Origin: an uncultured Actinomycetes bacterium
GTDB lineage: Bacteria > Actinomycetota > Actinomycetes > Streptosporangiales > Streptosporangiaceae
Direction: 5' to 3'
Assembly (NCBI GenBank): GCA_963801155.1
Contig: CAWDEB010000026.1
Coordinates: 24,038 to 88,037, forward strand
DNA length: 64,000 nucleotides
This document shows positions 6,720 to 54,130 of the stretch, piece after piece (within the stretch, counting starts at the first letter, position 1; each line of letters starts with the position of its first letter). The notes beneath the pieces are model-generated. The model was not told where the DNA came from and searched no databases. It saw only the letters and a program-made list of their open reading frames with translations. The translations under genes and the position numbers were made by a program.

Positions 6720-6790
6720 TCCAGCAACCTACGCTCGGCTGGTGGCGGGAGTTAGCCTGAGGAGAGCCAGCCGCTGACCCAGGGGGCATC

Positions 6791-10751: not shown

Positions 10752-11941
10752 CGGCTCATTCTGTGGAGGGCCGGCTGCGCGTCGCCCTGCTGACCCGCGA
10801 GTATCCGCCCGAGGTGTACGGCGGCGCGGGCGTGCACGTCACCTACCTGGCCCGCGAGCTGGCCCCGCTGGTGGACCTGACCGTGCACTGCCAGGGCGCG
10901 GACCGCCCTGGCGCCGTCGCCCACCGGCCCTGGGACCTGCTGGACGGCGCCAACCAGGCGCTGCAGGTGATGTCCACCGACCTGTCCATGACCGCCGCCC
11001 TGTCCGGTCCCGGCGGGCCGGAAATGGGCGGGGCCCAGCTGGTCCACTCGCACACCTGGTACACCAACCTGGCCGGCCACCTCGCGGCCATGCTGTACGG
11101 CATCCCGCACGTCATGACCATGCACTCGCTCGAGGCGCTGCGCCCGTGGAAGGCCGAGCAGCTCGGCGGGGGTTATCGGCTGTCCACCTGGTGCGAGCGC
11201 GAATCGGCGGCCTCAGCCGCCGCGGTGGTAGCCGTGTCGGACGGCATGCGCGCCGACATCATGACCGTTTACCCCGAGATTTCGGCCGAACGAATCCGGG
11301 TGATACGCAACGGGATCGACACCACCGAGTACCACCCGGATCCGAACACCGACGTGCTCAAGCGGCACGGCATCGAGCTGAGCCGCCCCTACGTGATCTT
11401 CGTCGGCCGGATCACCCGGCAGAAGGGCGTGCCAGTACTGCTCCGCGCGGCGTCCGGCCTGGTTCCGCAGGCGCAGCTGGTGCTGTGCGCGGGGCAGGCC
11501 GACACACCGGAGCTCGAGGCTGAGGTGACCGGGCTGGTGGACGGCCTGCGCGCGTCCCGGTCCGGCGTGGTGTGGATCCCGGAGATGCTGCCCAAGCGTG
11601 AAGTGATCCAGCTGCTCACGCACGCCACGGTGTTCGCCTGCCCGTCGATCTACGAGCCGCTCGGCATCGTGAACCTGGAGGCGATGGCGTGCGGGACCGC
11701 GGTGGTGGGGTCCCGCACCGGCGGGATCCCGGAGGTGGTGGCCGACGGCGAGACCGGCCTGCTGGTGCCGCCGGGCGAACCCGAACCGCTGGCCGCGGCG
11801 CTGAACGCCCTGGTCAGTGACCCGGCCCGGGCCGTGGCGATGGGCGAGGCGGGCCGCAAGCGCGCGGTCGCCGAGTTCGGCTGGGCCGCCATCGCCGCCC
11901 AGACCGCCGCCCTCTACGCAGAGCTGGTCACCGGGGCATAA
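10748..11941 (+). CDS. glgA: GT4-type glycogen synthase / alpha-maltose-1-phosphate synthase
   Basis: 397 aa with [18 protein letters not shown], a GT4 C-terminal [18 protein letters not shown] motif and a GTGA overlap with glgC. Confidence 0.85.
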
Positions 11942-12049
11942 ATCTCCGTTCTCGGCGTGGCGCCGGTACAGCGGGTGTAAACCGGTGCCTATTCTTTCGC
12001 GTCCATGCATTGGGGAGCATGGGTCATAAGTCACCTAGAGAGGCAGTTG

Positions 12050-12901
12050 ATGATGCAGGGAATACGTCGTCTTGTCGTCTATGCGGCAGCGACCGGCCTG
12101 CTCGCGGCCGGGGCAGTCAGCGCGAGCCTGCAAGTGGCCCACGCCGACACCTTTGCCGCTGCCTGCGGCGGGAACGGGGGTAACGGCTATATCTGCAATC
12201 TGGACGCGACGATTCCCTCGCCGGGCTCGATATCGGTGAGCCGTGGATTCCGGCAGCCGCCAGCGAGAACGTCGATGTGAACTGGACGGTGAGCTGTGCC
12301 GACAGCAGCGGCTCTCAGAACCAGCTGGGCGCCACCGCTAACGCCACGACACCCCTCACCGTTCCGCTGACGCCGCTGCCCCCTACCGCCGCTGACGGCA
12401 ATTGCCCGGTGAACGTGGGCATAAGCCTGCCGAAAGCCGACGTCACCCCGAAGATCATTTACACCGGCACGCTGAGCTACACGCCCGCTGGCACGTCCAG
12501 CTCTGGTGGCTCCGCGCCGGTGCACCCGGTCAAGGGCTCCGGCGGGAAGTGCGTGGATGACAAGGGCAACAGCTCGGCCAACCGGGCCAAGATCCATGAT
12601 CTGGGGCTGCAGCGGCTCTGACCAGGCCGAGAACTGGAAGTACAGCAGCAGCGAGCTCGTCCACAACGGCAAGTGCCTGAACGACAAGGGGAACGGCGGC
12701 AGCGGCAGCAAGGTCATCTTGTACTCCTGCAACGGCGGGTCGAACGAGAAGTGGAGCCAGCTGTCCAACGGCGAGCTCAAGCTGGCGGCCCACGGCGGCA
12801 CGCTCTGCCTGGATGACCCGCGCTCCTCGACGACGAACGGCACGCAGCTGATCGTCTACACCTGCAAGGACAGCGCCAACCAGAAGTGGTCGCTGCCGTA
12901 G
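12050..12901 (+). pseudogene. secreted ricin-B-lectin domain protein, copy 1 (two frameshifts)
   Basis: Signal peptide MMQGIRRLVVYAAATGLLAAGAVSA. Frames change near 12240 and at about 12595. At the second site copy 1 reads ATCCATGATCTGGGG where copy 2 reads ATCCAGATCTGGGG, an extra base outside any homopolymer. The C-terminal ricin domain is nearly identical to copy 2. Confidence 0.7.
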
Positions 12902-13110
12902 CGGACAGCACCCGGCCGCGGGCGCCCCGCCGTCCTCCCGTTAACCGAGGGTGACGGTCGTGGGCGCCTTCGGCTCTTTTACCCAGAGTTGGTCACCGGG
13001 GCATATATCTCCGTTCTCGGCGCGGCGCCGGTGCGGCGGGTGTAAACCGGTGCCTATTCTTCCGAGTCCTGCATTGGGGGGCATGGGACTTAAGCAACGA
13101 AGAGAGGCAG

Positions 13111-13995
13111 TTGATAATGCGGGGAATTCGTCGTCTTGTCGTCTACGGGGCAGTGACCGGGCTGCTCGCCGCCGGGGCCGTCAGCGCGAGCATGGGGGTC
13201 GCCCACGCGAACTTCGCCGACCTCTGCGACGGGAGCTCAACGAGCACTCCCACCGCCTGGAGCTGCGTCGTGACAGGGACGATTCCCTCCCCGTCCGCGA
13301 TAACGGTGAGCGTCACCGACGAGACCGCCAACGCCACCGAGAATGTCCTGGTGAACTGGACGGTCGACTGCACGGATAGCACCAACGGCACGCTGGGGAC
13401 TGCGGGCGCTCCCACGGACGCCACTCCGGCTACCGTCAACCTCACGCTGCCCGCCTCCGCCGACGGGCAGTGCACCGCAACGGCGACCGTGAGCCTGCCG
13501 GGTAGCGAGCTCAGCACCAACGGCTTCACTCCCACCGACTTCACCGCCCAGCTGACCTACACGCCGGCTGCCTCGGCGTCTCCCAGCCCGTCGCCCACCC
13601 CCGCTAGCGCTTCGGTGCACCCGGTCAAGGGGTACGACGGGAAGTGCGTGGACGACAACGGCAACAGCTCGGCCAACCGGGCCAAGATCCAGATCTGGGG
13701 CTGCAGCGGCTCTGACCAGGCCGAGAACTGGAAGTACAGCAGCAGCGAGCTCGTCCACAACGGCAAGTGCCTGAACGACAAGGGGAACGGCGGCAGCGGC
13801 AGCAAGGTCATCTTGTACTCCTGCAACGGCGGGTCGAACGAGAAGTGGAGCCAGCTGTCCAACGGCGAGCTCAAGCTGGCGGCCCACGGCGGCACGCTCT
13901 GCCTGGATGACCCGCGTTCGTCCAAGACGAACGGCACCCAGCTGATCGTCTACACCTGCAAGGACAGCGCCAACCAGAAGTGGTCGCTGCCGTAG
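13111..13995 (+). CDS. secreted ricin-B-lectin domain protein, copy 2 (intact)
   Basis: 294 aa with a signal peptide, a Thr/Ala-rich unknown N-domain, a PSPSPTP linker and a ricin-type domain (KCVDDNGNSSANRAKIQIWGCSGSDQAENW ... QKW repeats). Confidence 0.8.
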   Translation: MIMRGIRRLVVYGAVTGLLAAGAVSASMGVAHANFADLCDGSSTSTPTAWSCVVTGTIPSPSAITVSVTDETANATENVLVNWTVDCTDSTNGTLGTAGAPTDATPATVNLTLPASADGQCTATATVSLPGSELSTNGFTPTDFTAQLTYTPAASASPSPSPTPASASVHPVKGYDGKCVDDNGNSSANRAKIQIWGCSGSDQAENWKYSSSELVHNGKCLNDKGNGGSGSKVILYSCNGGSNEKWSQLSNGELKLAAHGGTLCLDDPRSSKTNGTQLIVYTCKDSANQKWSLP

Positions 13996-15889: not shown

Positions 15890-18688
15890 ATGAGTGAGTC
15901 ATCCCCTTTGCGCGGCCGTGACGGCGAGTCCGCGCTGATCGGCCAGTTGCTCGCCGCGGCCTCGCGGGGCGAGGGCTCGATCGTGGTGATCGAGGGCCCG
16001 GCCGGCTTCGGCAAGACCAGGCTGCTGCGGTCGGCGGTCGAGCAGGCCGCCGCGGCGGGGATCCGCACCGGCTGGGGCGGCGCGACGGACGGCGCCCAGG
16101 CCGCGCCGATGCTGACGCTGATGTCCGCGTTGTTCGAGGGACGCGAGCCGTTGCTGGACAGGGCCGAGCTCCGCGAGCTCCCCGAGGCGCAAGAGCAGCG
16201 GTTCTGGCTGCTGCAGCAGCTCGCCGGGCTGCTGGAGGCGGCCGCACTCGACGGGCCGCTGCTGATCTGCCTGGATGACCTGCAGTGGGCCGACCCGGGG
16301 ACGCTGGCCGCGGTGCGGTCCCTGCCGGAGCAGCTTGCCGACCTTCCTGTCGTCTGGATGGTGGCTCTGCGGCCAGAGGGAGCGCCGAAAAGCGTTCTGA
16401 CGGTGATCGAGGCTCTGGGCGAGCTGGACGCCCGCCAGATGCACGTGGGACCGCTGGGGCCAGAGGCGGTCGAGCAGATTCTCGCCGACATTCTCGGCGC
16501 GGAGGCTGAGCAGAACCTGTCCGGCGTGGCCGCCAGCACCGACGGAAATCCGTTCCTGCTGGCAGAGCTGCTGCGCGGGCTGCGAGATGAGGGTCGCCTG
16601 CGGTTCGGTGCCGGGCGGGTGAACCTGGTGGGTACGCAGCTTCCGGTCCGGCTGCGACAATCGATGCGGCTCCGGCTCGGTTCCCGGTCACCAGTAGCCC
16701 AGCAGCTGGTGGCGGTCGCCGCCGTGCTCGGCCGGAGCTTTTCCCACGATCAGCTGGCGGCCATGCTCGGCCGGCCTGCCACCGCGCTGCTCGCCCCGGT
16801 CGAGGAGATGATGGACGCGGGCCTGATCACGGAGGATGGCGAGCGCCTGGCCTTCAGGCACGACCTCATCCGGGAGGCCGTGCTCGAGACCCTGTCCGCT
16901 TCCTCGCGGCGCGCCCTGCAGCGCCGCGCGGTGGACGTCTTCCTCGCCGAGGGAGCGCCGCCGGCCGATATAGCCCGCCAGCTGGCCGACAGCGCTGACC
17001 CGGGCGACCGCGCGGCGGTCTCACTTCTGTCGCGCGCGGCGGAGGCGCTGCGCATGCTCGACTCCGCGGCCGCCGCCGACATCGCCGTGAAGGCTCTGGA
17101 GCTCGCGGCACCTGACGACACGATGCGCGGGCCGCTGGTCGCCCAGGCCGCCATCTTGCTGTTTGCCGCGGGCCGGTCCGCTGAGGGGCAGGCACTGGCC
17201 CAGGGCGCCTTGCGTGAGCTGCTGCGTGCCGAGCAGCAAGCCGAGATATGCCTCGCGATTTCCGCCATGCTCTCCGTCCCGGCGGACGTCCGGGAGGAAG
17301 CCTGCCGCCGGGCACTCCAGCTGGATGGCCTGTCCGAGGTCATGCGCCTGCGACTTCAGGCACGGCTCGTCTATTCCGTCGTGCACGTGGGCAAGCTGGC
17401 CGAAGCCCAGCAGATGATTGACCGCATCGAGCCAAAGGTCGCGACCACCGATGACGTGACCGCGAGGTTCGCGTTCGAGATCGCTCGGCAATCCCTCGCT
17501 GTGATGGAAGATCGCTTCCAAGACGCCCTCGATGCCGCGCGCGCCTCCCGCGTCAGCGTGCCCACCAAGACGCCGATACCGGCTTACATGACCGACGTGA
17601 TCGTCATCGAATCACTCGCCCTGCAGGACAACTTCGACGAGGCCCTCCAGATGATCGCGTCTGGCGTGGCCGCCGCCCAGCGCGACGACCAGCTCTGGGT
17701 CGCGCGCTCGCTTGAACTCAACCGGGGCAGATACTGGGCTGCGACGGGGCGTCTCGAGGACGCGGCGGCGGCGCTCGAGAGCATATCTCCCACCCTGGAG
17801 CCCCGCCAGGTGCGGAACTCCGGAGACGCCGCCGTCCTGACCGCCCTGGGGCGCGTCGCACTGCACACGGGCAACCGGCGGCAATCAGGTATGTGCGCGC
17901 GCGCCGCGCGCCAGGCGCTGGGCACGCTGCCGCCCGAGCCGCGCCAGCACGCGGCGTGGCTGATCGCGTTGCTGCAGATGGCCGACGGTGATGGCCGCGG
18001 CGCCCGCACCGTCCTCAGCCAGGGCCGCGACCCGGATATGCCCGTGCTGCCCCGGTTCTGGGCCGACCCCGCCGACCCGCCACAGCTCGTGCGTATCGCC
18101 CTGGCCTGCGGCGACGGCCAGCTCGCATCCGAGGCCGTGGCCATCGCCGAGCGGCGCGCCCAGCGGAACCCCGGTGTCGCCTCACTGGAGGCAATCACCG
18201 CGCACGCCCGGGGCATGCGCGACGACGACATCGCCGAACTCGGCCGTGCGGCGCAACGGTTCGCCCACAGCCCCCGGCGCCTGGCCAGGGCCTCAGCGAC
18301 CGAGGACCTGGGGCGCCTTCTCGTCCAAAGCGGGCAGCTAGCCGAGGGGATCCGCTGGCTGAACGAGGCCCTCGAGCTGTACGCCGGGATGGGCGCCACC
18401 TGGGATGCGACCCGGGTACGCGGGCGGCTGCGACGGCTGGGAGTACGGCGCAACCTGCAACCGCCCCGGCGGGCGCAGGGCTGGGCCGGCCTCACCGACT
18501 CCGAGCTGGCCGTGGTGCGGCTGGTCGCCGCGGGGCAGACGAACCGGCAGGTAGCCGCCCAGCTGTTTCTTTCCCCGAATACGATCAGCAGCCATCTTCG
18601 CCGCGTCTTCGCCAAGCTCGGTATCACCTCACGGGTCGAGCTCGTCCGCCTGTTCGTCGCCCACCACGAGGGGCCTCAACGCCCCTGA
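15890..18688 (+). CDS. LAL-type regulator 1 (P-loop ATPase + helical repeats + LuxR HTH)
   Basis: 932 aa with Walker A GPAGFGKTRL, Walker B LLICLDDLQWAD and a C-terminal LuxR HTH (LTDSELAVVRLVAAGQTNRQVAAQLFLSPNTISSHLRRVFAKLGI). Confidence 0.85.
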   Translation: MSESSPLRGRDGESALIGQLLAAASRGEGSIVVIEGPAGFGKTRLLRSAVEQAAAAGIRTGWGGATDGAQAAPMLTLMSALFEGREPLLDRAELRELPEAQEQRFWLLQQLAGLLEAAALDGPLLICLDDLQWADPGTLAAVRSLPEQLADLPVVWMVALRPEGAPKSVLTVIEALGELDARQMHVGPLGPEAVEQILADILGAEAEQNLSGVAASTDGNPFLLAELLRGLRDEGRLRFGAGRVNLVGTQLPVRLRQSMRLRLGSRSPVAQQLVAVAAVLGRSFSHDQLAAMLGRPATALLAPVEEMMDAGLITEDGERLAFRHDLIREAVLETLSASSRRALQRRAVDVFLAEGAPPADIARQLADSADPGDRAAVSLLSRAAEALRMLDSAAAADIAVKALELAAPDDTMRGPLVAQAAILLFAAGRSAEGQALAQGALRELLRAEQQAEICLAISAMLSVPADVREEACRRALQLDGLSEVMRLRLQARLVYSVVHVGKLAEAQQMIDRIEPKVATTDDVTARFAFEIARQSLAVMEDRFQDALDAARASRVSVPTKTPIPAYMTDVIVIESLALQDNFDEALQMIASGVAAAQRDDQLWVARSLELNRGRYWAATGRLEDAAAALESISPTLEPRQVRNSGDAAVLTALGRVALHTGNRRQSGMCARAARQALGTLPPEPRQHAAWLIALLQMADGDGRGARTVLSQGRDPDMPVLPRFWADPADPPQLVRIALACGDGQLASEAVAIAERRAQRNPGVASLEAITAHARGMRDDDIAELGRAAQRFAHSPRRLARASATEDLGRLLVQSGQLAEGIRWLNEALELYAGMGATWDATRVRGRLRRLGVRRNLQPPRRAQGWAGLTDSELAVVRLVAAGQTNRQVAAQLFLSPNTISSHLRRVFAKLGITSRVELVRLFVAHHEGPQRP

Positions 18689-21447
18689 CGCCGCTGGAAA
18701 ACTAACCCGGTCCGCTCGGCGGCCAGACGGGCCAGCTCGACCCGGGAACGGATGCCCAGCTTCCCGAACGCGTGGCGCAGGTGGGTGTTGATGGTGTCAG
18801 GGGCGAGAAACAGCTCACTGGCGGCCTCGCGGTTCGTCAGCCCCTTGGCGACCAGATCGACCACGGCCTGCTCGGCACGGGTCAGGCTAGCCCAGCCACC
18901 CCGCGAGCGGGCGAGGCCGCTGCGCTGCTTGCGGACGCCCACCGCTCTCAGAGCGGCCCGGACCCGCGCGGCATCCCGGTGCGCGCCGATCCGGACATAG
19001 CAGTCATAGGCCCCCTCGAGCTGCCCGACCGCCGCCTCGCGCCCGGTGAGAGCCTGGCCCAGGTCCTCCCGGGCCGCGGCCTCGAGCAGGCGGTCCTCGC
19101 TGGCGGCGGCCTGCTCGACGGCCTCACGGAGCAGGCCGGTGTCGCTCTCGATTAGCGCCCGGGCGTGGGCGGCCGCCGCGGCGATCGCATTTACCTGTGG
19201 GTTCCGTCCGGCCTGCGCGACGGCCGCGGCCGCGAAGGCACGCGCCGAGTCCTCCTCGCCCGATCGGCGGGCGAGGTGCACGAGCTGCGGCAGGCGATGA
19301 TGCTGGTAATTGGCGAAGAAGAAGTTCCCGGCCTGGAGCTGCGCGCGGATGGGCGTGAAGGCCTGCACAGCCAGGGCCGCTTCGCCCCGCGCGTCCGCGA
19401 CCAGTGCCGCTGCCCAGTGGAGGTCGGGAAGCACGCCGTGGGCATCACGGGCGTACCGGGCCAGCACCGACTGGGCCGTGGCCAGGTCGCCCCGGCGCAG
19501 CGCAGTCTCGGTCATGACCGACAGCGGTAGGGCCACCCGGTTGGGGTAGCCGAGCTCCGTCGGCAGGTCGATCACGCTCCGTGCCTCCGCGTCGGCGTCG
19601 TCCAGATGACCCTGGCTGAGCAGCATGGCCGCACGGAGGCGGCGATAGCGGAAGATCAGCCCCGCCCGGCCTGCCGCGTTAGCGGCGGCGAGCGCAGGTC
19701 GCATTCTCGCCAGCGCGTCCGAGATCCGGCCGCTCGCGGTCAGGGCGGCCACGACCATCTCCTCGTACATCCCAGGATCCCGCTCGTCCTGGACCATCCG
19801 TGCGGTCGCCAGCGCGGCCTCGGCCCGCGCCAGAGCTTCGCCGAAGCGGCCGCGGAGCAGCGAGTTGAGCACGCGCAGCTGAGTGATCACCGCGACCCCG
19901 GAGGCGTAGCCGCTCGCGCCGGCGATGAGCATGGCCGCGTCCAGCGCCCGATCGACCTCTTCCCCGTGGCCGCGCAGGATGCCGGCCATCTGGTCAAGGG
20001 CCGCGAGCGTGGCGGCCACGCCCGGGTCGACCGCCGGGTCGGCCAGCAGGGGAGCGGGCAGTGAGACCGGATACGGCTCCAGGCGGTCGACGACCCAGGG
20101 CCTTCTCAGCTCGAGCTGCAGCTCCGCCTCCGCCTTAGCCGGGAGCCTATGGGTGGCCAGGTAACGCTCCCCGGCCTCGCGCGCCTCGGCGACCCGTCCG
20201 GCCAGCCCAAGGGCCAACGCGGCCGAACGGACCAGTTCCAGACCGCCCTCATCGCGGTCACCGATCAGCTCCAGCGCCCGCACCGCGAGGTCGGCCGCCG
20301 CGTTCGGAGACGATGGCGCCAGTTCCGCCGCCGCCTGCCCGATCGTGGCGGCGGCCGCCGCATCGCCAGGACGCGCTCCGATGGCCAGCTGCGCGGCGAT
20401 GCGGACCACCGGCGCGCCGGTCCGGCGCAGCGCCTCGCCCGCCTCCCGGTGCAGGGCCAGCCGCGCCGAGGCAGGCAGGCTCTCGTACGCTGCCTCGCGC
20501 AGCAGGTCATGCCGGAAGGCCAGCCCAGCCGGTGTCCCGGCCAGCATCTCGGCCCGCAGCGCCTCTTCGACCGCCGCGGTCAGGTCGCTGGCCGGCCGGG
20601 CCGTCAGGGCCGCGACCTCGGTCACGGTGAACTCCCGGCCCAGGACCGAAGCGACCTGCAGGAAACGGCGGGCATCATCTGACAGCAGCCGCAGGTGTCG
20701 CGCGATCGCGGTGCGCGCGCTGGCCGGGACAGTGCCGCCGGGGCGGCCGTCGGCCTGCTGCCGGACCGCCTTCAGCAGCTGGAGGATGTAGAACGGGTTG
20801 CCTTCGGCGTCCGCGATCAGCTTTGCCAGGTCGATCCCGGTATCCGTCAGCCGGACGTCCCGGGCGAGCGCCAGGGCGTCGGCGGCCCAAAGCGGCCCGA
20901 GATGCAGACGGACGGCGCCGATCGTCTCCAGGCGTTCCAGCACGCCGTCCAGGGCGGGATTGGCCGGCAGCGGGCGTCGCGCGAGCAGCCACCCCACCGG
21001 GTAGGAGAACAACGCGACCGGCAGCGAGCCCAGGGCCAGTAGTGAGGCTGAGTCCGCCCACTGCAGGTCATCCAGCACCACCAGCAGCGGCCGGGATGCC
21101 GCGCCCTGCTCCAGCGCCGCCCTCATACGCTCGAGCACCGCGAGGCGCTGATCGGTCAGGCCGCGGACCGACTCCAGGTGAGCCGCGGGCATGATCGGCG
21201 GATCGCTCGAAGACAGGGCGCGCAGGAGCATTCCCCACGAGGTCACCTGGTCCAGCTCATCCGCGCCTCCAGACGCGACCAGCAGGCCGGCGGCGGCCGC
21301 GTGCCGGCCCGCCTCGGCCAGCAGCCGCGACTTGCCGATCCCGGCCGCGCCCTCCACCACGGCCACGCCACCCGCACCCTCGAGCGCCGCGGAAGCCACC
21401 GCCTCCAACCGGGCCAGCTCGGCGTCACGCCCGCGCAGTGGCGTCAT
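18676..21447 (-). CDS. LAL-type regulator 2
   Basis: Same architecture: GAAGIGKSRLL, LLVVLDDLQWAD, LTRAEQAVVDLVAKGLTNREAASELFLAPDTINTHLRHAFGKLGI. The probable start is MTPLRGRD at 21447; the longest ORF starts at 21489. Its 3' end overlaps regulator 1 by 13 nt. Confidence 0.85.
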   Translation of the reverse strand: MTPLRGRDAELARLEAVASAALEGAGGVAVVEGAAGIGKSRLLAEAGRHAAAAGLLVASGGADELDQVTSWGMLLRALSSSDPPIMPAAHLESVRGLTDQRLAVLERMRAALEQGAASRPLLVVLDDLQWADSASLLALGSLPVALFSYPVGWLLARRPLPANPALDGVLERLETIGAVRLHLGPLWAADALALARDVRLTDTGIDLAKLIADAEGNPFYILQLLKAVRQQADGRPGGTVPASARTAIARHLRLLSDDARRFLQVASVLGREFTVTEVAALTARPASDLTAAVEEALRAEMLAGTPAGLAFRHDLLREAAYESLPASARLALHREAGEALRRTGAPVVRIAAQLAIGARPGDAAAAATIGQAAAELAPSSPNAAADLAVRALELIGDRDEGGLELVRSAALALGLAGRVAEAREAGERYLATHRLPAKAEAELQLELRRPWVVDRLEPYPVSLPAPLLADPAVDPGVAATLAALDQMAGILRGHGEEVDRALDAAMLIAGASGYASGVAVITQLRVLNSLLRGRFGEALARAEAALATARMVQDERDPGMYEEMVVAALTASGRISDALARMRPALAAANAAGRAGLIFRYRRLRAAMLLSQGHLDDADAEARSVIDLPTELGYPNRVALPLSVMTETALRRGDLATAQSVLARYARDAHGVLPDLHWAAALVADARGEAALAVQAFTPIRAQLQAGNFFFANYQHHRLPQLVHLARRSGEEDSARAFAAAAVAQAGRNPQVNAIAAAAAHARALIESDTGLLREAVEQAAASEDRLLEAAAREDLGQALTGREAAVGQLEGAYDCYVRIGAHRDAARVRAALRAVGVRKQRSGLARSRGGWASLTRAEQAVVDLVAKGLTNREAASELFLAPDTINTHLRHAFGKLGIRSRVELARLAAERTGLVFQRRQGR

Positions 21448-35298: not shown

Positions 35299-37107
35299 GT
35301 GGCCGGGGCGTTCTTCCGGCACCGGGGACTCATCGCGTTCTCCGCCGGAGGCGCGATGGCCGAAACCACCGTGCTCTCGTTCCTGGCGCCCTCCGCCCGT
35401 CCGCTCGCACCGCAGGTCACGGCGCTCCCGCCGCTCGCGGCTTATCACGACCTCCGCTGGCTGTTCGCGTTCAACCAGTCCTGGCTCGGCTTCACCGCCG
35501 TGCTCGTGCTGCTGGTGCTGGCCCGGGCGGCCGTGGACGCGATCCTGGTCCAGCTGGCCTGGCCACGCCAGGCCGATCCGGCGGCGCCCCGCCTGCCCAG
35601 ACCGCGCTTCCTCACCTCGGTTGTGTCCTGTGCCGTGCTGACCTTCCTGGTGGGGCTGGTGCTGTCCCCGGTGGTCACGCTGATGTTCGGGGTGGCCCTG
35701 CTGCCGTTCTCCTGGCCGTATTTGGCCGCGGTGCCCATCCTGCTCGGCACCACGGTGGCACTGAGCCAGGGCGGCGTCGGCCAGGCGTGGTGGCGACGGC
35801 TGCCCCCGGTGCGTACCGCGGCGTGGGTGGTCGCGACCTTCCTGATCTTGTCCCTGGCCTCGGCGCTGATGGCGCATCTGGACACGCCCGGCATCGTGGC
35901 CGTGGCCGGGCTGGCCGGGGTGGTGGACGCCCGGGCCTGGTACGGGCTCACCGCCGCCGCGGTTGCCAGGGGGGTCCCAAGAGGGGCCAGGGGGTCCCAA
36001 GGGGGGTCCGGGGGGATGGGTCTGTCCCAAGGGGGGTCTGGGGGGATGGGTCCCCCCAGGAGCGGGGGGGGGGTTGGGGGGGGTCGTCCCCCCCGGGGTA
36101 TCTGGCTGCCGGTGGCGCCGCTGGCCGCGATGATGGTCCTCGCCGTGATGGTGGGGATGACCCGGCTGGCCTTCACCGGCACCGTGCATTTCGCCACTGG
36201 CACGAGCGGCGCAATCGCCGGGGCGGTCACCAGTGCCGACCAGGGAGCCGGGCTGACGACGGGGACGGCCGGTGGGGCCGGCGGGAACGGCGGCGGCAAA
36301 GGCGGTGCCGCCACCGGCGCGGCCAAGCCCCGGGGGGCGGTGCTGGTGGTCGAGGGCTTCGGGTCGAGTTGCTGCCACGCCGCCGACACCCTGCGGGCGG
36401 CCGAGCCGGGCATGCCCGTGCGCCAGTTCTCCTATCTGGGCCTGAACGCCGCCGGGCAGCCGGTCCCGTACGGCCCGGCGGCCGGGGACCTGTCCATCCA
36501 GGCGCTCGGCGACCGGATGGCCGCCCAGGTGGAAAGCCTGTACGACCAGGTTGGCGTGCCGGTGGACGTCGTTGCCGAGAGCGAGGGCACCCTCGGTCTG
36601 TACGCGATGCTGGCCCGGCACCCGCATGTGCCGGTCAAGTCGGTGACGCTGCTGAGCCCCATCGTCGAACCGGGCCAGCTGGGCCAGGCGGACGGCACCG
36701 TTCCGGGTGCCGCGCTGACCACGCTGAACAACCTGGTCGGCGGCATGTCGCCGTACGGCAGCTCGGGGGCCGACGCGCTGATCGACTCGGTCAGCCAGGT
36801 TGGTGCCCGGTATTTCGAGCTGGTCAGCCGCCAGCGGTCGCTGCCCTGGCTGGCGGTGATCCCGCTCGCCGACGCGGTGACCCTGCCCGCGTGCCCGTGG
36901 CCGCAAAACGTGATCTTCGTCGACGGCTTCCACGGCGGTCTGCTCGGCTACGCCTCCGTCCGCCAGCTGGTCGAAGCCTTCCTGTCCGGCGGCACCGCGA
37001 GCGCGGACAGCGCCTCCCAGCGGGAGCTTCGGACCACGGCCCAGCTCATCGCGTCGGCGGCCACGGCCTGGCGGATGCCCGAGCTCCACCAGGCCTGCCC
37101 GGGCTGA
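35299..37107 (+). CDS. membrane-anchored alpha/beta-hydrolase-like protein with G/P-rich insert
   Basis: GGGAGG sits 6 nt before GTG 35299 (alternative ATG 35356). The N-terminal half has about 6 TM helices. The C-terminal half reads VLVVEGFGSSCCH ... VVAESEGTLGLYAMLARHP, with a nucleophile-elbow-like AESEG. Confidence 0.65.
   Translation: MAGAFFRHRGLIAFSAGGAMAETTVLSFLAPSARPLAPQVTALPPLAAYHDLRWLFAFNQSWLGFTAVLVLLVLARAAVDAILVQLAWPRQADPAAPRLPRPRFLTSVVSCAVLTFLVGLVLSPVVTLMFGVALLPFSWPYLAAVPILLGTTVALSQGGVGQAWWRRLPPVRTAAWVVATFLILSLASALMAHLDTPGIVAVAGLAGVVDARAWYGLTAAAVARGVPRGARGSQGGSGGMGLSQGGSGGMGPPRSGGGVGGGRPPRGIWLPVAPLAAMMVLAVMVGMTRLAFTGTVHFATGTSGAIAGAVTSADQGAGLTTGTAGGAGGNGGGKGGAATGAAKPRGAVLVVEGFGSSCCHAADTLRAAEPGMPVRQFSYLGLNAAGQPVPYGPAAGDLSIQALGDRMAAQVESLYDQVGVPVDVVAESEGTLGLYAMLARHPHVPVKSVTLLSPIVEPGQLGQADGTVPGAALTTLNNLVGGMSPYGSSGADALIDSVSQVGARYFELVSRQRSLPWLAVIPLADAVTLPACPWPQNVIFVDGFHGGLLGYASVRQLVEAFLSGGTASADSASQRELRTTAQLIASAATAWRMPELHQACPG
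35965..36100 (-). repeat. G6/C6-tract element copy (reverse orientation) plus 30-bp tandem duplication, inside the CDS and in frame
   Basis: GTCCCAAGGGGGGTCYGGGGGGATGGGTC occurs twice (35994-36023 and 36024-36053). It is followed by AGCGGGGGGGGGGTTGGGGGGGGTCGTCCCCCCCGGGG. The reverse complement matches the core of the 50622 and 53461 copies. It encodes GSQGGSGGMGLSQGGSGGMGPPRSGGGVGGGRPPRG. Confidence 0.75.
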
Positions 37108-47324: not shown

Positions 47325-47329
47325 ACTTG

Positions 47330-47343
47330 TTACTGGTGAGTAA
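47330..47343. promoter_or_regulatory. candidate operator upstream of fadA-fadB
   Basis: TTACT-ggtg-AGTAA is an inverted repeat in the only AT-rich stretch (CTTGTTACTGGTGAGTAATTTCTTC) between the upstream stop and the fadA RBS (AGGGGAGG). Confidence 0.25.
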
Positions 47344-47368
47344 TTTCTTCAGTCAGGGGAGGCTGAGC

Positions 47369-48557
47369 ATGCCTCGTATCGCACGTGACGTCGTCTTCGT
47401 GGACGGCGTTCGCACCCCGTTCGGGAAGGCCGGGCCGAAGGGCCTGTACGCCGAGACCCGGGCCGACGACATGGTCGTCAGCGTGATCCGCGAACTGCTG
47501 CGGCGCAATCCCGCGCTGCCGCCGGAGCGGATCGGCGACGTGGCCATCGCCGCCACCACCCAGACCGGCGATCAGGGCCTGACCATCGGCCGCAGCGCGG
47601 CGGTCCTGGCCGGGCTGCCGAAGTCCGTCCCCGGGTACGCCATCGACCGGATGTGCGCGGGCGCGATGACCGCCGTGACCACGGCCGCCGGGTCGATCGC
47701 CTTCGGCGCCACCGACACCGCCATCGCGGGCGGCGTGGAGCACATGGGCCATCATCCGATGGGTTCCGGGGCCGACCCGAACCCCCGGTTCATCTCCGAC
47801 CGCCTGGTCGACCCGTCCGCGCTGGTGATGGGCTCGACGGCGGAAAACCTGCATGACCGGTTCCCGGAGATCACCCGCGGCCGGACCGACGCCTACGCGC
47901 TGGACAGCCAGCGCAAGGTCGCCGCGGCCTACGCCGCGGGCCAGATCCAGCCGGACCTGGTGCCGGTCGCGATCCGCAGCACGGAGCTCGGCTGGGGGCT
48001 GGCCACGGTGGACGAGCCGCCGCGCCCGGACACCACGCTGGAGGCTCTGGCCGGGCTGAAGACGCCGTTCCGGCCGCACGGCCGGGTCACCGCGGGTAAC
48101 TCCGCCGGGCTGAACGACGGCGCCTCCGGCTGCGTCATCGCGGCCGCGGACGTGGCCGCCGAACTTGGGCTGGGCGCCAGGATGCGGCTGGTCGACTTCT
48201 GCTACGCCGGGGTAGGCCCCGAGGTGATGGGCATCGGGCCAGTGCCGGCCACCGAGACCGTGCTGGCCCGCAACGACCTGACCATCGACGACATCGGGCT
48301 GATCGAGATCAACGAGGCGTTCGCCGTACAGGTCCTCGCGTTCCTCGACCACTTCAAGATCGCAGACGACGACCCGCGGGTGAACCCGTGGGGCGGCGCG
48401 ATCGCGGTCGGTCACCCGCTCGCCTCCTCCGGCGTCCGGCTGATGATCCAGCTGGCCCGAGAGTTCGCCGAGCAGCCGAACGCCCGTTTCGGCCTGACCA
48501 CGATGTGCATCGGGCTGGGCATGGGCGGCACCGTCTTGTGGGAGAACCTCAATGTGA
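47369..48557 (+). CDS. fadA: acetyl-CoA C-acyltransferase (thiolase); no in-frame stop as written
   Basis: MPRIARDVVFVDGVRTPFGKAG.., active-site region DRMCAGAM, NEAFAVQVL, GGAIAVGHPLASSG and CIGLGMGGTVLWEN. The frame stays open past 48557 into fadB. The nearest stop is an out-of-frame TGA at 48555-57. Confidence 0.85.
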
Positions 48558-50621
48558 TTGGACAACTCGGATCTCACCTCCCTGTACCCGGAGGAAGTAC
48601 TCACCAGGGCTCTGGTCCGCGACGTAGAGCTGCCGGACAGGGCCGGGACCATGGCCCTGATCACCCTGGACAACGGGTACGACTACACGCGGCCGAACAC
48701 CTTCGGCCCGGCGGGCCTGCTCGCGCTGCGGGACGCCCTGGCGGAGGTGGCCGGCCGGACCGACATCGCCGCGGTCGGCGTGACCGGCAAGCCGTTCATT
48801 TTCGCGGCCGGCGCCGACCTGGGCGTCGCCGCGCTGATCAGGTCGCGGGACGAGGCTCTGGCCGTGGGCCGGCTGGGGCAGAGGTGTTCCGCCGGTTCGG
48901 CGAGCTGAGCGTGCCGTCGTTCGCATTCGTCAACGGCGCCGCGCTCGGCGGCGGCCTCGAGCTCGCACTGCACTGCTCCTACCGGACGATCTCGTCGGGC
49001 GTCACCGCGGTTGCGTTCCCCGAGTGCTTCCTCGGCCTGGTGCCCGGCTGGGGCGGCACCTTCCTGCTGCCGCGCCTGATCGGCCCGGCCAAGGCGCTGA
49101 AGCTCATCATCGAGAACCCGCTCAGCCAGAACCGCATGCTGGGCGGAGCCCGAGGCCTTCTCGCTCGGCATCGCCGACGCCATGTTCGAGCCCGCCGACT
49201 TCCTGGCCGAGTCGCTGCGCTGGGCCGCCCGGGTCCTGAACGGATCGGTGAGCGTCTCGCGGGCTCCTCTCGAGGGGGACTGGGACGAGGCCGGGCCGCG
49301 GGCGAGGTTCTTCGCCGACGGGAAGCTGCACGGTGCTGCGCCCGCGCCGTACCGGGCCATCGAGCTGGTCGCCGCGGCCCGCGGCCGGACCCGTGACGAG
49401 GGGTTCGCCGCCGAGGACGAAGCGCTCGCGGACCTGCTGCTCAGCGATGAGTTGCAGGCCGGGCTGTACGCGTTCGACCTGACCCAGAAGCGGGCCCGTC
49501 ACGCGGCGGGCGCCCCGGACAAGTCCCTGGCCCGGCCGGTCACCAAGGTCGGCGTGGTGGGCGCGGGCCTGATGGCCGCGCAGATCGCGCTGCTGTTCGC
49601 GCGGCGGCTCGAGGTCCCGGTGGTGCTGACCGACCTGGACCAGGCGCGGCTGGATTCCGGCGTCGGCCATGTGCACGGCGAGATCGCCAAGCTGGCCAGC
49701 CGCGGCCGGATCGGCGCGGATGCGGCCGCGAGGCTGACCGCGCTGGTGACCGGGTCGCTGACCAAGGACGCGTTCGCGGACGCCGACTTCGTGATCGAGG
49801 CGGTATTCGAGGAGATCGCGGTCAAGCAGCGGGTGTTCGCCGAGGTCGAGGCGGTGGTCCGGCCGGACTGCGTGCTCGCCACCAACACCTCCTCGCTCTC
49901 GGTGACCGAGATGGCCGCCGGGCTGGCCCATCCTTCGCGGGTCGTAGGGTTCCACTTCTTCAATCCGGTGGCCATGATGCCGCTGGTGGAGGTGGTGCGC
50001 GGCGCCGCTACCGATGACGCGGCGCTGGCCACGGCGCTGGCCGTCGGGAAGGCGCTGAAGAAGAACTGCGTGCTGGTCAAGGACTCGCCCGCGTTCGTGG
50101 TCAACCGCCTGCTGACCAGGTTCCTCGGCGAGATCCTCAGCTGCGTCGATGAAGGTACGCCAGTCGAGGTGGCCGATCACGCCCCCGACCCGCTAGGCCT
50201 GCCGATGTCCCCGTTCCTCCTGCTCCAGCTGGTCGGCCCGGCGATCGCGCTGCACGTCACCGAGACGCTGCACACGGCCTTCCCCGACCGGTTCGGCGTA
50301 TCGCGGAAGCTCCGCGCCCTGGTGGCGGCGGGCCATACGGCTCTCTACCGGCCCGACTTCTCCGTCGACGAGTCCGTCGCGGTCCTGCTGGCCGGGGGGG
50401 ACCGCCCGTCCACCCCTGAGCAGGTGCGCGAGCGGGCCCTGGAGGCGCTGGCCGAGGAGATCAGGCTGATGCTCGACGAGGCGGTGATCGTCGCCCCGGA
50501 GGACATCGACCTGTGCATGATCCTCGGCGCCGGCTGGCCCTTCCACCTCGGCGGGATCACGCCCTACCTGGATCGCAGCGGCATCGCGGAAAAGGTCACC
50601 GGCACCCGGTTCCACCTGTAA
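48558..50621 (+). CDS. fadB: fatty-acid oxidation multifunctional enzyme: enoyl-CoA hydratase + 3-hydroxyacyl-CoA dehydrogenase (two frame disruptions, about 48875 and 49145)
   Basis: ORF 48558..48908 (crotonase N-part), the thiolase-frame segment (FAFVNGAALGGGLELALHC, GLVPGWGGT) and ORF 49182..50621 (VGVVGAGLMAAQIA, NTSSLSV, HFFNPV). Confidence 0.85.
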
Positions 50622-50705
50622 CCCCCGGGGGGACGATCCCCCCCAGACCCCCCCTGCTCTTGGGGGGAAACCGTTCCCCCCAAACCCCCTCGGCCCCCTG
50701 GGCCT
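50622..50705 (+). repeat. G6/C6-tract palindromic element copy (intergenic)
   Basis: CCCCCGGGGGGACGATCCCCCCCAGACCCCCCTGCTCTTGGGGGGAAACCGTTCCCCCCAAACCCCCTCGGCCCCCTGG. It shares its core with 53461-53510 and, reverse-complemented, with 36040-36098. Confidence 0.8.
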
Positions 50706-50720
50706 GGATAGGGTGGCGGG

Positions 50721-52352
50721 ATGACACCGGTGTTCAGGCTCTGCGATGACTACGTGACGCGGTGGGCGGCGCTGGATCCGGTCGCCGCGGGGATGCAGGG
50801 CCTGACCAGCGTGTTCGGCGCGGCCACCAACTACGGCCCGGATGGTTTCGCGGCGCGGGCTGAGCTCATCACCGCGACGCTGGACGCGCTCGAGCCGATG
50901 AGCCTGACCTCGGATGCCGACCGGCTGGCCGCCGGGTTGCTGCGTGAGCGGCTCGAGGCTCAGCTGGCCTGGCATCGGTGCGGCGAGCCGCTCCGGCTGC
51001 TGCGGGCGCCGATCGGCCTGGTCAGCGTGATCAGGGACAGCGTGGACCTGCTGCCGCGCGACGGCGACGACGGCTGGCGGAACATCGCGGCGCGCCTGGC
51101 CGCCATCCCGGTCATGTTCGCGAGCTGGCGAGCCAGCCTGGACGCCGGGCTCGGCCAGGGCCTGACCGCCGCGCGCAGGCAGGCGGTGCAGGCCGCGGTG
51201 GCCGCCGATCACTGCGTGGGAAGCCATGACGCCCTGGTCGCCTCCTACGGTGACGGCCCGCTCGCGGCCGAGCTCGCGGCGGCCGCCGCGCAGGCCTACC
51301 GCGGGTACACGGAGCTGGCCCGCTACCTGCGTGAGGACTACGCGCCGCGGGCCACGCAGGTGGACGGCGTTGGGACCGACCGGTACGCGGTCGCGGCCCG
51401 GCTCAACCTGGGCGCGGACATCGACCTCAAGGAGGCCTACGAGTGGGGCTGGGCCGAGCTGCGGCGGATCGAAGTCGAGATGGCCGCCGAAGCGGACGCC
51501 ATCAGTCCCGGCGCGAGCGTGGAGGAAGCGACGGCCATCCTCAACGAATCCGCCTACGTGACCGGAGAGGACGCGTACCTGGCCTGGCTCCAGGACCGGC
51601 ACGACTGGGCCATCGAGCAGCTTGACGGCGTGCACTTCGACATCCCCGCCCCGCTGCGCAGAATCGAGGTGGTCCTCGCCCGCGGCTCGACCTCGGGGGC
51701 GGCCTACTACACCGGGCCCAGCGAAGACCTGTCCAGGCCTGGACGTACCTGGTGGCCGCTGGGCGGCCGGGACCCCCAAGGGCGATTCCAGACCTGGGCC
51801 GAGCTGTCCACGGTCTTCCACGAGGGCGTCCCCGGTCACCACCTGCAGGTCGGCGCGGCCAGGACCGCCGGGGACAGGCTGTCGCGGTTCGCGAAATCCA
51901 ACTTCGTGAGCGGCCACGGGGAAGGCTGGGCCCTGTACGCCGAGCGCCTCGCCGATGAGCTGGGCTGGTTCGCCGAGCCGGGCACCCGGCTGGGCATGCT
52001 CGGCGGATCGGCGTTCCGCGCCGCGCGGGTGGTCATCGACATCGGCGTCCACCTGGACCTGCCCCTGCCCGACGGCTCCCGGTGGAGTTTCGAGCGGGCC
52101 TGTGAGGTACTGAGCAAGTCGGGCCGCGGCGAGCCGCACCGGATCCAGGCCGAGGTGGTCCGCTACTTCGGCTGGCCGGGCCAGGCCATCTCCTACAAGC
52201 TCGGCGAGCGCGGCTGGCTGACGGCCCGGGCCGAGGCGATGCGGCGTCCCGGTTTCGACCTGAAGCGCTGGCACACCGCCGCGCTGAGCCTCGGGCCGAT
52301 CGGCCTGGCCGGCCTGGCCGACGCGCTGGCCGGCGCCGACCTGAACCGGTAG
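50721..52352 (+). CDS. DUF885 family protein (metallopeptidase-like HExxH variant)
   Basis: 543 aa with ..VFHEGVPGHHLQ.. and EGWALYAE, typical of DUF885. Confidence 0.8.
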   Translation: MTPVFRLCDDYVTRWAALDPVAAGMQGLTSVFGAATNYGPDGFAARAELITATLDALEPMSLTSDADRLAAGLLRERLEAQLAWHRCGEPLRLLRAPIGLVSVIRDSVDLLPRDGDDGWRNIAARLAAIPVMFASWRASLDAGLGQGLTAARRQAVQAAVAADHCVGSHDALVASYGDGPLAAELAAAAAQAYRGYTELARYLREDYAPRATQVDGVGTDRYAVAARLNLGADIDLKEAYEWGWAELRRIEVEMAAEADAISPGASVEEATAILNESAYVTGEDAYLAWLQDRHDWAIEQLDGVHFDIPAPLRRIEVVLARGSTSGAAYYTGPSEDLSRPGRTWWPLGGRDPQGRFQTWAELSTVFHEGVPGHHLQVGAARTAGDRLSRFAKSNFVSGHGEGWALYAERLADELGWFAEPGTRLGMLGGSAFRAARVVIDIGVHLDLPLPDGSRWSFERACEVLSKSGRGEPHRIQAEVVRYFGWPGQAISYKLGERGWLTARAEAMRRPGFDLKRWHTAALSLGPIGLAGLADALAGADLNR

Positions 52353-52940: not shown

Positions 52941-53240
52941 ATGGCGTCGTATGAGTCCGCTTCGCGCTCAGAAGCGGATCGCGATCTCGCGGCCCTGGCC
53001 GTCGTACTGCGGGACATCCGGAACGGTGACCGCCTGGCCGGCCGCGATGCGCCGCAGCCCGGCCCAGCAGCCGCCGCCGCTCGTCACGGCCGGGGCCGCT
53101 ACGGTGGCACACCCGCGTCCGTGTCCGGCGAGGCTCCCGCCTCGCCGGCCCGCCGAGCCGCTAGGGTTTCCTGGTGGCCGAGCGGACAGCCAGCGTCACT
53201 GAGAAACGGGCGGCTCATGCCGACGTCAGCCCGGTCCTGA
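52941..53240 (+). CDS. possible short ORF, or the displaced N-terminus of the following gene
   Basis: A strong RBS (AGGAGGTCAGCG) precedes ATG 52941 (MASYESASRSEADRDLAALAVVLRDIRNG..). The later part is Arg/Pro/Ala-rich and unconvincing. It overlaps the 53174 ORF in another frame. Confidence 0.25.
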   Translation: MASYESASRSEADRDLAALAVVLRDIRNGDRLAGRDAPQPGPAAAAARHGRGRYGGTPASVSGEAPASPARRAARVSWWPSGQPASLRNGRLMPTSARS

Positions 53241-54130
53241 TCCGGTGCACCGCGCCGGACGCGCTGTCCAACCTCGTCGCCGTCCTGGAACTGGGCGCCG
53301 ACGGGCAGTTGGGGTGCAGCGCCGCCACCAGGCGGCCATCCGCGGCGACCGTGAAGCTGGTCGAGGATGTCCTCGTAGCGGGGGATTTCTACGGCGCCCG
53401 CGAGCCCATCGCCGCGTTCGCGTGGCCGCTGCTGATCCAGATGGGAGGGCTGGCAGTGTTGGCCCGGGGGGACGACCCCCCGGCCAGACCCCCCCGAGGG
53501 GGCATGGCCGGAACCCGGCTCGAGCTCTCCCCGCGCGGCCGGGCGACGCTGGCCAGGCCGTCCTACGACGCGCTCGGCGCGCTGTGGGCAAGGTGGCTGG
53601 GGAGCGTGTCGACCGACGAGCTGTCCCGGATCGACGCCATCAAGGGGCAGCGCAGGCCCGCCACCTTGACCTCTGCCGTCACCCGGCGCGCCGCGGTCGT
53701 CGCGGCCCTGGCCACACTGGAACCCGGCGCCTGGACGGGCACCGGCAGGCTGCTCGGTATTCTCCGGGCCCAGCGGCCGCCGCTGGTGGCGGCGAGGAGC
53801 CTGCGGGCGCTGTGGCGGCTGTACGTCATCGACTCCTACCACGGATCCCTCGGCCACGCCGGCTCGCGGGCCTGGGATCTCGTCGAGGGCAGGTACGCGC
53901 TGTGCGTGCTCTTCGAGTACGCGGCCACCGTCGGCCTCCTCGATGTGGCCTACGCCGACCCCCGCGGCGCACGCGACGATTACCGTGCCCTGTGGGGTGC
54001 GGACCAGCTCAGCTGCCTGTCCCGCTACGACGGCCTGGTCGCGGTCCGGGTCAACGAGCTGGGCGCCGCCGTGCTGCACGACCCCGGGGCCCTGCCCGGG
54101 CTGGGCCTGCCCGTCCCGCGCCGGGCGTGA
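53174..54130 (+). CDS. hypothetical protein carrying an in-frame G6/C6-element insert
   Basis: 318-aa ORF with protein-like composition (..LWARWLGSVSTDELSRIDAIKG.., ..LCVLFEYAATVGLLDVAY..). No family recognised. Confidence 0.55.
   Translation: MAERTASVTEKRAAHADVSPVLIRCTAPDALSNLVAVLELGADGQLGCSAATRRPSAATVKLVEDVLVAGDFYGAREPIAAFAWPLLIQMGGLAVLARGDDPPARPPRGGMAGTRLELSPRGRATLARPSYDALGALWARWLGSVSTDELSRIDAIKGQRRPATLTSAVTRRAAVVAALATLEPGAWTGTGRLLGILRAQRPPLVAARSLRALWRLYVIDSYHGSLGHAGSRAWDLVEGRYALCVLFEYAATVGLLDVAYADPRGARDDYRALWGADQLSCLSRYDGLVAVRVNELGAAVLHDPGALPGLGLPVPRRA
53461..53510 (+). repeat. G6/C6-tract element copy inside the CDS, in frame
   Basis: GGCCCGGGGGGACGACCCCCCGGCCAGACCCCCCCGAGGGGGCATGGCC encodes ARGDDPPARPPRGGMA and is flanked on both sides by TGGCC. 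Confidence 0.75.

Follow-up and report, generated by a model that had tools for sequence, protein, structure and literature searches.

Background

Repetitive extragenic palindromic (REP) sequences, bacterial interspersed mosaic elements (BIMEs), and REPINs are proteobacterial elements mobilized by REP-associated tyrosine transposases (RAYTs). Mycobacterial interspersed repetitive units (MIRUs), found in actinobacteria, are not known to be built around a hairpin of G and C homopolymers, and in-frame insertion into unrelated open reading frames (ORFs) is not a known feature of theirs. Among RNA motifs, the riboswitch called guanidine-II (mini-ykkC) consists of two ACGR-tetraloop hairpins with two conserved closing G-C pairs and a linker of 7-40 nt, and it lies in the 5′ untranslated region (UTR) of guanidine-related genes (PMC5558903). 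Here, we analyzed a stretch of 64,000 nt from an uncultured Streptosporangiaceae bacterium (contig CAWDEB010000026.1, positions 24,038 to 88,037; hereafter, the window), in which three segments –copies A, B, and C– share an arrangement of G and C tracts; copy A lies directly behind a fadB-like gene. We consider it probable that the three segments are members of a lineage-specific repeat family of Streptosporangiales, whose short, dispersed, non-coding units form hairpins and would be mainly selfish or neutral.

A preliminary description of this DNA knew of no described family with the sequence in actinomycetes. This stands for repeat families. We found no description of the sequence or of the repeat in the literature searched, which covered REP/RAYT elements in actinobacteria, repeats of Streptosporangiales, and Trebonia. 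It does not stand for RNA motifs, because the core hairpin matches the Rfam consensus of guanidine-II. The repeats would add an apparently undescribed family to a large and little-studied group of soil actinomycetes, and the cultured carriers (Actinomadura, Actinoallomurus, and Allonocardiopsis) make experiments possible.

Three copies in the window

Copy A (50622-50705, forward strand) follows the gene for the 3-hydroxyacyl-CoA dehydrogenase part of a FadB-like protein (49182-50621, forward strand; PF02737 and PF00725; stop codon TAA at 50619-50621), and its 3′ end is 15 nt ahead of the ATG of a DUF885 gene. The preliminary description had quoted this segment and placed it behind the fadB-like stop. 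The placement is right, and one detail was corrected: there are 7 C instead of 6 in the second C tract. The head module (50622-50654; nhmmer E-value 5e-5), whose first base is one after the stop codon, reads C5, G6 (50627-50632), the loop ACGAT (50633-50637), C7 (50638-50644), the linker AGA, and C7 (50648-50654). The second module and the tail (50655-50705, forward strand) continue with TGCTCTT, G6 (50662-50667), the loop AAACCGTT, C6 (50676-50681), AAA, C5, TCGG, C5, and TGGGCCT. On its right, the variable spacer that holds copy A is limited by a –10-like TAGGGT, followed by 6 nt and the DUF885 ATG (50709-50723, forward strand).

Copy B (53452-53509, forward strand; E-value 5e-8) has the leader GGCAGTGTTGGCC, G6 (53466-53471), the loop ACGA, C6 (53476-53481), the linker GGCCAGA, C7 (53489-53495), and the tail GAGGGGGCATGGCC. 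It lies in-frame within the ORF at 53174-54130 (forward strand), where it encodes AVLARGDDPPARPPRGGMA. Copy C is on the reverse strand, within the ORF at 35299-37107 (forward strand) and therefore antisense to the coding strand. Its core (36031-36098) comprises a head, G7-ACGA-C8-AA-C10 (36064-36094), and a second module, GCTCCT-G6-ACCCAT-C6-AGA-C6 (36031-36063). An extension (35960-36030, reverse strand) adds further partial units (TTGGGAC..ACCCAT-C6-GGA-C6 and TTGGGA-C5-TGG...), which are surplus over the allele type of the related locus L210 and bring 18 more codons (SQGGSGGMG repeated). Both host ORFs were judged real genes by their profiles of G+C content at third codon positions (GC3) and by more than 1000 homologues each; the frame is kept in both, as had been proposed.

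The recurrence of the core near 53.4 kb in the same orientation and near 36 kb in reverse complement was confirmed, at 53464-53482 (forward strand) and 36077-36095 (reverse strand). Of the wider core formula that had been given, GCTC(T)T-G6 is present in copies A and C only, and AGA-C6-7 in copies A and B only. With one mismatch at most, the 18-mer CCGGGGGGACGAYCCCCC occurs at three sites of the window (50625 and 53464 on the forward strand, 36077 on the reverse strand), a result matched by 0 of 100 shuffles. The 19-mer CCGGGGGGACGAYCCCCCC with up to three mismatches gave five matches versus 0.49 expected, and no shuffle out of 100 reached five; the three real copies differ from it by 0-1 mismatch.

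The window has 118 G/C runs of 5 or longer, of which 91 are exactly 5 long, and runs of 6 or longer concentrate at copies A, B, and C. The complete unit G5+-loop-C5+-linker-C5+ was found four times, versus 0.07, 0.01, and 0.02 in Markov simulations of order 1, 3, and 5. Since simulations that preserve up to fifth-order composition give 0.01-0.07 units, homopolymer richness is insufficient as an explanation.

A conserved head in Streptosporangiales

We scanned one genome per species for exact matches to CCGGGGGGACGAYCCCCC and obtained at least 120 loci, so the further copies that a dispersed family implies do exist. The named records listed are almost all Streptosporangiales (Trebonia, Streptosporangiaceae, Actinomadura, Actinoallomurus, Allonocardiopsis, and Nocardiopsis), and the few outliers among the matches listed are very short contigs of other metagenome-assembled genomes (MAGs). 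Many of the carrier genomes listed come from samples labeled bog, palsa, or peat, and several of the listed matches fall in the same MAG. Among named protein relatives of the window, the closest come from MAGs labeled 'Streptosporangiaceae bacterium'. Scoring with the head profile gave three copies in the 64-kb window and nine in 510 kb of loci fetched via a neighboring gene (1.8 per 100 kb); a rough extrapolation gives between one and a few hundred copies in each genome.

In an alignment of 134 distinct instances, conservation reached outside the 18-mer used for the search and spanned –11 to +28. The basic unit runs from a G tract via a short loop to a C tract and, after 2-5 nt, to a second C tract; the conserved head of about 40 nt reads GCnGTGCTnGCC-CGGGGGG-ACGA-CCCCCCGG-(G)AA-CCCCCC-G. 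Its palindrome has an 8-bp stem (CCGGGGGG/CCCCCCGG) and a 4-nt loop, with the conserved leader in front. Parts that are not homopolymers are conserved too: the leader GCnGTGCTnGCC, the loop ACGA, and the linker GGAA or AGA. Even in loci not selected for their loop, ACGA or close variants are the commonest loops of G5+/C5+ hairpins (about 16 of 28).

What lies behind the heads is variable. Copies A and C carry a second G-loop-C-linker-C module, a type (G6-ACCCAT-C6-AGA-C6 and similar) also found behind heads in L053, L072, L073, L040, and L119. Other heads are followed by a long hairpin, GCGCGCCCGATGGC...GCCATCGTATCGGGCGCGC, by a hairpin GGCTCGG..CCGAGCC in tandem arrays of 87-90 nt, or by tandem units of 39-42 nt with the end GGGCATGG, the type to which copy B belongs. 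Heads are often amplified head-to-tail, and adjacent head pairs up to 250 nt apart are always direct (27 versus 0 inverted). The tract order G-C-C is also strongly preferred: among the hit loci it was counted 178 times, versus 13 and 39 for two control orders, and among the loci fetched via the neighboring gene 13 times versus 2 and 7.

Trebonia-type loci (L028, L030, L085, L087, L023, L047, L107, and L114) present the GCGCGCCCGATGGC-loop-GCCATCGTATCGGGCGCGC module with a leader ATC(C)CC instead of GTGCTGGCC and with a GTA linker; this module could represent a sub-family of its own or a composite element. Two further ideas on the arrays were discarded. They are not CRISPR arrays, since the whole unit is repeated, including the part between hairpins (87 nt five times in L041, 90 nt four times in L125, 42 nt in L007). 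Nor do tandem periods point to selection for the reading frame, as only 9 of 16 arrays fit a multiple of three, which is not significant.

In a scan of viral contigs, one of six matches was a true head, and the remainder were an unrelated hairpin in contigs of 64% G+C. A composite consensus had no BLAST match in plasmid and phage collections, possibly owing to low-complexity masking.

The preliminary description had allowed that G/C homopolymer content alone could account for the likeness of the three copies. Chance in a genome of 71% G+C, or homopolymer errors of long reads, now has virtually zero probability as an explanation. It is true that G5/C5 runs are common, that the fadA/fadB frames look disturbed, and that dinucleotide shuffles fold almost as stably as the copies. 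However, shuffles and order-5 Markov sequences hold about 0 copies versus the 3-4 observed, the leader, loop, and linker are conserved, and the element recurs both in contigs of Joint Genome Institute (JGI) metagenomes and in isolate genomes. We thus take this reading to be refuted.

The fadA/fadB region (47327-50621) deserves a comment of its own. In the ORF at 47327-49396, thiolase domains are joined to an enoyl-CoA hydratase segment, and the 3-hydroxyacyl-CoA dehydrogenase part has its own, overlapping ORF at 49182-50621. In L127, the orthologous locus, a thiolase of 396 aa and a FadB of 688 aa are intact. The apparent disturbance could come either from assembly indels or from a pseudogene. 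Since the relatives' assemblies are presumably long-read, judging from record names alone, exact tract lengths may include homopolymer errors.

The same sites differ between close relatives

Within the time that separates close relatives, the same genomic sites gain and lose copies, and the copies there are replaced and resized. Orthologous loci are not uniformly filled, and empty sites exist, as expected for a mobile repeat in the preliminary description.

For site A, we compared 80 loci fetched via the DUF885 protein. The spacer from the fadB stop to TAnnGT-N6-ATG is short and element-free in seven loci (L132, L134, L137, L138, L144, L153, and L175), holds a head only in five (L135, L136, L139, L141, and L143), and holds two modules with differing loops in the window, L127, and L145. 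The flanks remain 85-95% identical while the spacer content varies, and four lineages whose DUF885 protein is 96% identical to that of the window each have a different spacer. A further polymorphic site is a head directly behind a Lactamase_B stop in L156, which the window, L127, and L130 lack.

In about 50 orthologous loci (L127-L207), TAnnGT-N6-ATG is conserved ahead of DUF885, and everything upstream of it is variable. A TAnnGT box 6 nt ahead of the ATG is the typical geometry of leaderless actinobacterial transcripts, and judging by this promoter geometry the DUF885 transcript may be leaderless. Copy A would then belong to the 3′ region of the fadAB transcript and not to the 5′ UTR of DUF885.

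In L129, L130, L140, L146, L147, L159, and L169, the gene upstream of DUF885 is not fadB, and synteny breaks exactly at the variable spacer; in L130, this spacer holds repeat modules. The repeats may mark rearrangement junctions.

At site B, empty alleles read GGLARLAGTRLEL and the window allele reads GGLAVLARGDDPPARPPRGGMAGTRLEL, a net in-frame gain of 45 nt. Among 109 homologue clusters, 63 are empty and 46 have 4-32 extra residues, with duplications, nested inserts, and remnants among the filled alleles. A tree that leaves out the insert calls for at least 20 changes between presence and absence. Empty alleles keep an Arg codon (CGG), and all filled alleles have Val, Met, or Ala there (GTG and similar, which is the element's leader). 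Thus, the empty alleles did not arise by excision, and about 9 nt of native sequence were overwritten by the element. At its two ends, copy B has TTGGCC and ATGGCC, where empty alleles have a single CTGGCC; the left flank is altered as well (CGG to GTG), which indicates replacement.

Site C is native in 109 of 118 homologue clusters (...RRSVxxPLHPWHWRATLQRIRRSLxDRxSW...), and the other nine carry element-derived alleles of at least six lengths. In the DNA alignment, L210 has an element of equal length in place of the native segment, and in L211 the replacement is partial. With its extra tandem units, the window protein has 602 aa versus 584 aa. These sites are natural examples of how a non-coding repeat becomes in-frame variation of protein length at recurrent hot spots; a single loop of one protein has dozens of alleles.

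The 9-mer with which the head starts, CTGGCCCGG, is present in the native sequence of site B as well as in that of site C. We set homing by homology aside, since this 9-mer is a common Leu-Ala-Arg codon string (15 times in 64 kb) and the native sites are not scored by the head profile; the coincidence is a weak hint.

Folding, reading frames, and gene context

The head hairpin alone folds at about –18 kcal/mol (hairpin energies range from –18 to –22 kcal/mol), and the G tract pairs less stably, by about 5 kcal/mol, with the second C tract. As a whole, the copies form very stable structures with many alternative folds, only modestly better than dinucleotide shuffles (z –0.5 to –2.8). The consensus has zero stop codons across the six frames, as do all three window copies; one variant, whose leader contains TAG, has stops in two frames. 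A sequence without stops can thus survive within ORFs as a linker rich in Pro, Gly, Arg, and Asp. In L097 (about 5124-5172), a head supplies the C-terminal residues (..IIAVLARGDDPPEPPAGPRSP) of a xanthine-dehydrogenase-like ORF in the frame of copy B, so the repeat can extend or terminate ORFs besides lying inside them.

Could the repeats be selected host signals at the ends of transcription units –terminators without a U tract, Rho loading sites, or blocks to 3′ exonucleases– whose likeness reflects a shared consensus and not mobility? The position of copy A, from 1 nt past the fadB-like stop to just ahead of the next gene's –10-like box, would suit such a role, and so would the stability of the hairpin. 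By a crude GC3-based gene caller, which overcalls positions inside ORFs, 15 of 36 heads with a co-directional upstream gene begin within 16 nt past its stop, and convergent spacers are the commonest intergenic setting (22 versus 13 divergent). In Actinoallomurus iriomotensis (L086, about 6715-6760), a head lies a few bases past the 3′ end of an apparent tRNA gene (..GGTTCGAATCCGGCCGGAGGCTCA), which fits a role at transcript 3′ ends. However, the same gene calls show no orientation bias between co-directional genes (12 sense versus 14 antisense), and two of the three window copies, and many elsewhere, lie in-frame in ORFs, where a terminator would harm. Orthologous spacers manage without the element, and a terminator hairpin has no need of the conserved 11-nt leader and loop. 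We therefore find this explanation unlikely as a whole, and a transcript-end role can still accompany a dispersed repeat as a side effect.

No tRNA or tmRNA was found in the window, and no terminator-like site in 50300-51000. An intrinsic terminator was rejected for copy A, whose hairpin is followed by C tracts with no U tract.

The tracts might also act as DNA, through non-B structures (G-quadruplex/i-motif or C+.G-C triplex) that modulate replication, recombination, or an adjacent promoter. An intramolecular C+.G-C triplex requires a purine tract, a loop, a pyrimidine tract, a second loop, and a second pyrimidine tract in this order, which is the strongly preferred one here. Two-module copies such as A have at least four C tracts on one strand, repeat sites are rearrangement hot spots, and the bog, palsa, and peat origin of many carriers also agrees with this proposal. 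Nevertheless, the complementary strand of single-module copies has only two G tracts, the fixed order is equally well explained if the copies descend from one duplicated unit, and a very stable Watson-Crick hairpin competes with non-B folds. We rate such a function as highly improbable.

Resemblance to the guanidine-II riboswitch

The window has no Rfam match at the gathering level. In permissive scans, guanidine-II (RF01068) was the top match for all three copies, with 20.8, 20.8, and 20.3 bits versus a cut-off of 32. The head CCGGGGGGACGACCCCCCGG aligns to the first RF01068 hairpin, ccgcggGGACGACCccgcgg, and both have a stem of 8 bp. Copies B and C have a perfect ACGR tetraloop with the two closing G-C pairs (GGGGGG-ACGA-CCCCCC), and copy A deviates with its longer loop. 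Composite copies elsewhere exceed the cut-off: two heads 29 nt apart, start to start, in L028 (3903-3947, reverse strand; 36.2 bits) and a head with a second module in L053 (7852-7902, forward strand; 36.9 bits).

On this basis, heads might be functional hairpins of guanidine-II type, with ACGA loops that bind guanidinium and kiss in tandem or in trans, and with copy A regulating the DUF885 or the fadAB transcript. The consensus match, the two loci above the cut-off, and the prevalence of ACGA-type loops argue for this; moreover, isolated single guanidine-II hairpins dimerize and bind guanidine in vitro (PMC5558903). Against it, 20-21 bits are one hairpin's worth, and none of the window copies is a two-hairpin riboswitch at the gathering score. 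The loop of copy A is ACGAU, with 5 nt, and that of its second hairpin is AAACCGUU; copy C, being antisense, has a UCGU loop in its mRNA. Tandem pairs number only 13, in 11 of 120 related loci, and the genes downstream of them are JAMM/MPN-like (L028, by sequence reading) or similar to the pyruvate dehydrogenase E1-alpha subunit, not guanidine genes.

The setting is also different from that of the riboswitch. Window copies lie in ORFs or past stop codons, not in the 5′ UTR of SugE/Gdx or guanidine carboxylase genes with a platform that sequesters the Shine-Dalgarno sequence. Heads in general occur in ORFs, past stop codons, past a tRNA, and in both orientations relative to genes. A tblastn search with SugE and EmrE found nothing in the roughly 1.5 Mb fetched, carboxylase genes not being searched. 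Since the element is missing from many orthologous DUF885 spacers, it is not a conserved DUF885 regulator, and GGACGRCC hairpins of at least 4 bp arise by chance in G+C-rich DNA (seven in the window). We judge functional guanidine-II hairpins quite improbable. The identity with a single aptamer hairpin most probably reflects a chance likeness or an old derivation, and the repeat would not be a working riboswitch.

A bolder version would see dispersed, working single hairpins, or a mobile riboswitch derivative, forming a guanidinium-driven kissing network, or else a G-C-C order selected as a triplex/i-motif switch. It is very improbable, and if true, it would mean a genome-wide, ligand-dependent network of RNA-RNA interactions, coding-region copies included. 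On the practical side, tandem and composite copies are probably systematic false positives of RF01068 in Streptosporangiales. This is an annotation hazard: riboswitch counts, and possibly the RF01068 alignments, may be inflated in these genomes.

How the repeats may spread

For a dispersed hairpin repeat family, spread would proceed either via an enzyme specific for the hairpin or the leader, or via template switch or gene conversion, in which other copies are copied under the guidance of microhomology. Slippage between tracts could account for local growth and shrinkage. The element itself would be mainly selfish or neutral, with two likely side effects: a very stable 3′ hairpin on the upstream transcript and variation in protein length.

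Several points weigh against this explanation and moderate our confidence in it. No protein family recurs beside the heads as a candidate mobilizing enzyme in 120 loci of 8 kb, and we see no clean target-site duplication or terminal inverted repeat. Native sequence was replaced at sites B and C, not simply interrupted, so that recombination fits better than classical transposition. Recurrent filling could likewise be allele transfer by homologous recombination between lineages instead of new insertions. A purely selfish model leaves the conserved ACGA loop and the fixed G-C-C order unexplained, and the copy number per genome is an extrapolation only.

No associated transposase emerged from all-against-all clustering of 762 ORFs from the 120 loci, which returned housekeeping families only. 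From their sequences, we take the recurring families to be ABC transporters, short-chain dehydrogenase, xanthine dehydrogenase, WhiB, and an FHA protein.

Other features of the window

Apart from the three copies, the window harbors a tandem duplication of about 1.07-1.09 kb at 11915-13991, with four repeat families of 85-98% identity at a spacing of 1064-1095 nt; these are probably two adjacent paralogous genes. Direct repeats at 16256, 21993, and 25883 and at 24164 and 28079, spaced 3.9-5.7 kb (e.g., CCGCTGCT..GATGACCTGCAGTGG..GACC), suggest a cluster of paralogous large genes between 16 and 29 kb. A long inverted repeat at 18479-18897 has arms of 181 nt, 72% complementary and 57 nt apart.

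Comparison with known systems

The likeness to REP sequences, miniature inverted-repeat transposable elements (MITEs), and Rickettsia palindromic elements that was proposed at first is sound as an analogy –a short, dispersed palindrome, also found in-frame–, but several defining features of REP/BIME and of MITEs are missing. As in REP and BIME elements, we find a short G+C-rich palindrome (about 20-40 nt) with a conserved 5′ leader, dispersed in many copies mostly in spacers at gene ends, in mosaic clusters with other motifs, variably present between relatives, and likely to form 3′ hairpins in mRNA. Unlike them, neighboring heads here are direct instead of alternating or inverted, and two of the three window copies lie inside ORFs and are not extragenic; in the 120 loci of 8 kb, no RAYT or other transposase was seen nearby. 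The head is not species-specific, being conserved throughout an order, its architecture is one of G/C/C homopolymers, and its 5′ motif is not of the GTAG type. Inverted doublets of the REPIN type were rejected, with 0 of 27 adjacent head pairs.

MITEs such as Correia, Nezha, and RU-1/2/3 are likewise small and non-autonomous, with filled and empty orthologous sites and occasional intragenic copies that are read through. However, the palindrome is internal here: the left end (GCnGTGCT..) is not complementary to the right ends (..CCCCCCG or variable tails). There is no clear target-site duplication, TGGCC at both ends of copy B being a hint only, and the repeat is smaller than most MITEs.

Rickettsia palindromic elements share the palindromic structure, the in-frame position in intact ORFs to which they add peptide segments, and the occurrence in spacers. 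They differ in length (roughly 100-150 bp versus 40-90 nt here) and in host and composition, and our repeats often form tandem arrays and replace native sequence at sites B and C; we take the likeness as an analogy only. With MIRUs, the family shares an actinobacterial host, units of 40-100 nt in operon spacers, and head-to-tail arrays of variable copy number, but the sequences are unrelated. The guanidine-II riboswitch is similar in the 8-bp G/C stem, the ACGA tetraloop with its two closing G-C pairs, and the scores of tandem heads above the cut-off. It differs in that the repeat usually has one hairpin, is polymorphic at orthologous sites, and has an extra conserved leader and a second C tract.

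Taken together, the leader, the ACGA loop, the fixed G-C-C order, the direct-only clustering, and the replacement junctions point to a mechanism of spreading unlike the RAYT/REP model. The best reading is a family of its own, within the short dispersed palindromic repeats to which REP sequences and Rickettsia palindromic elements are the nearest parallels.

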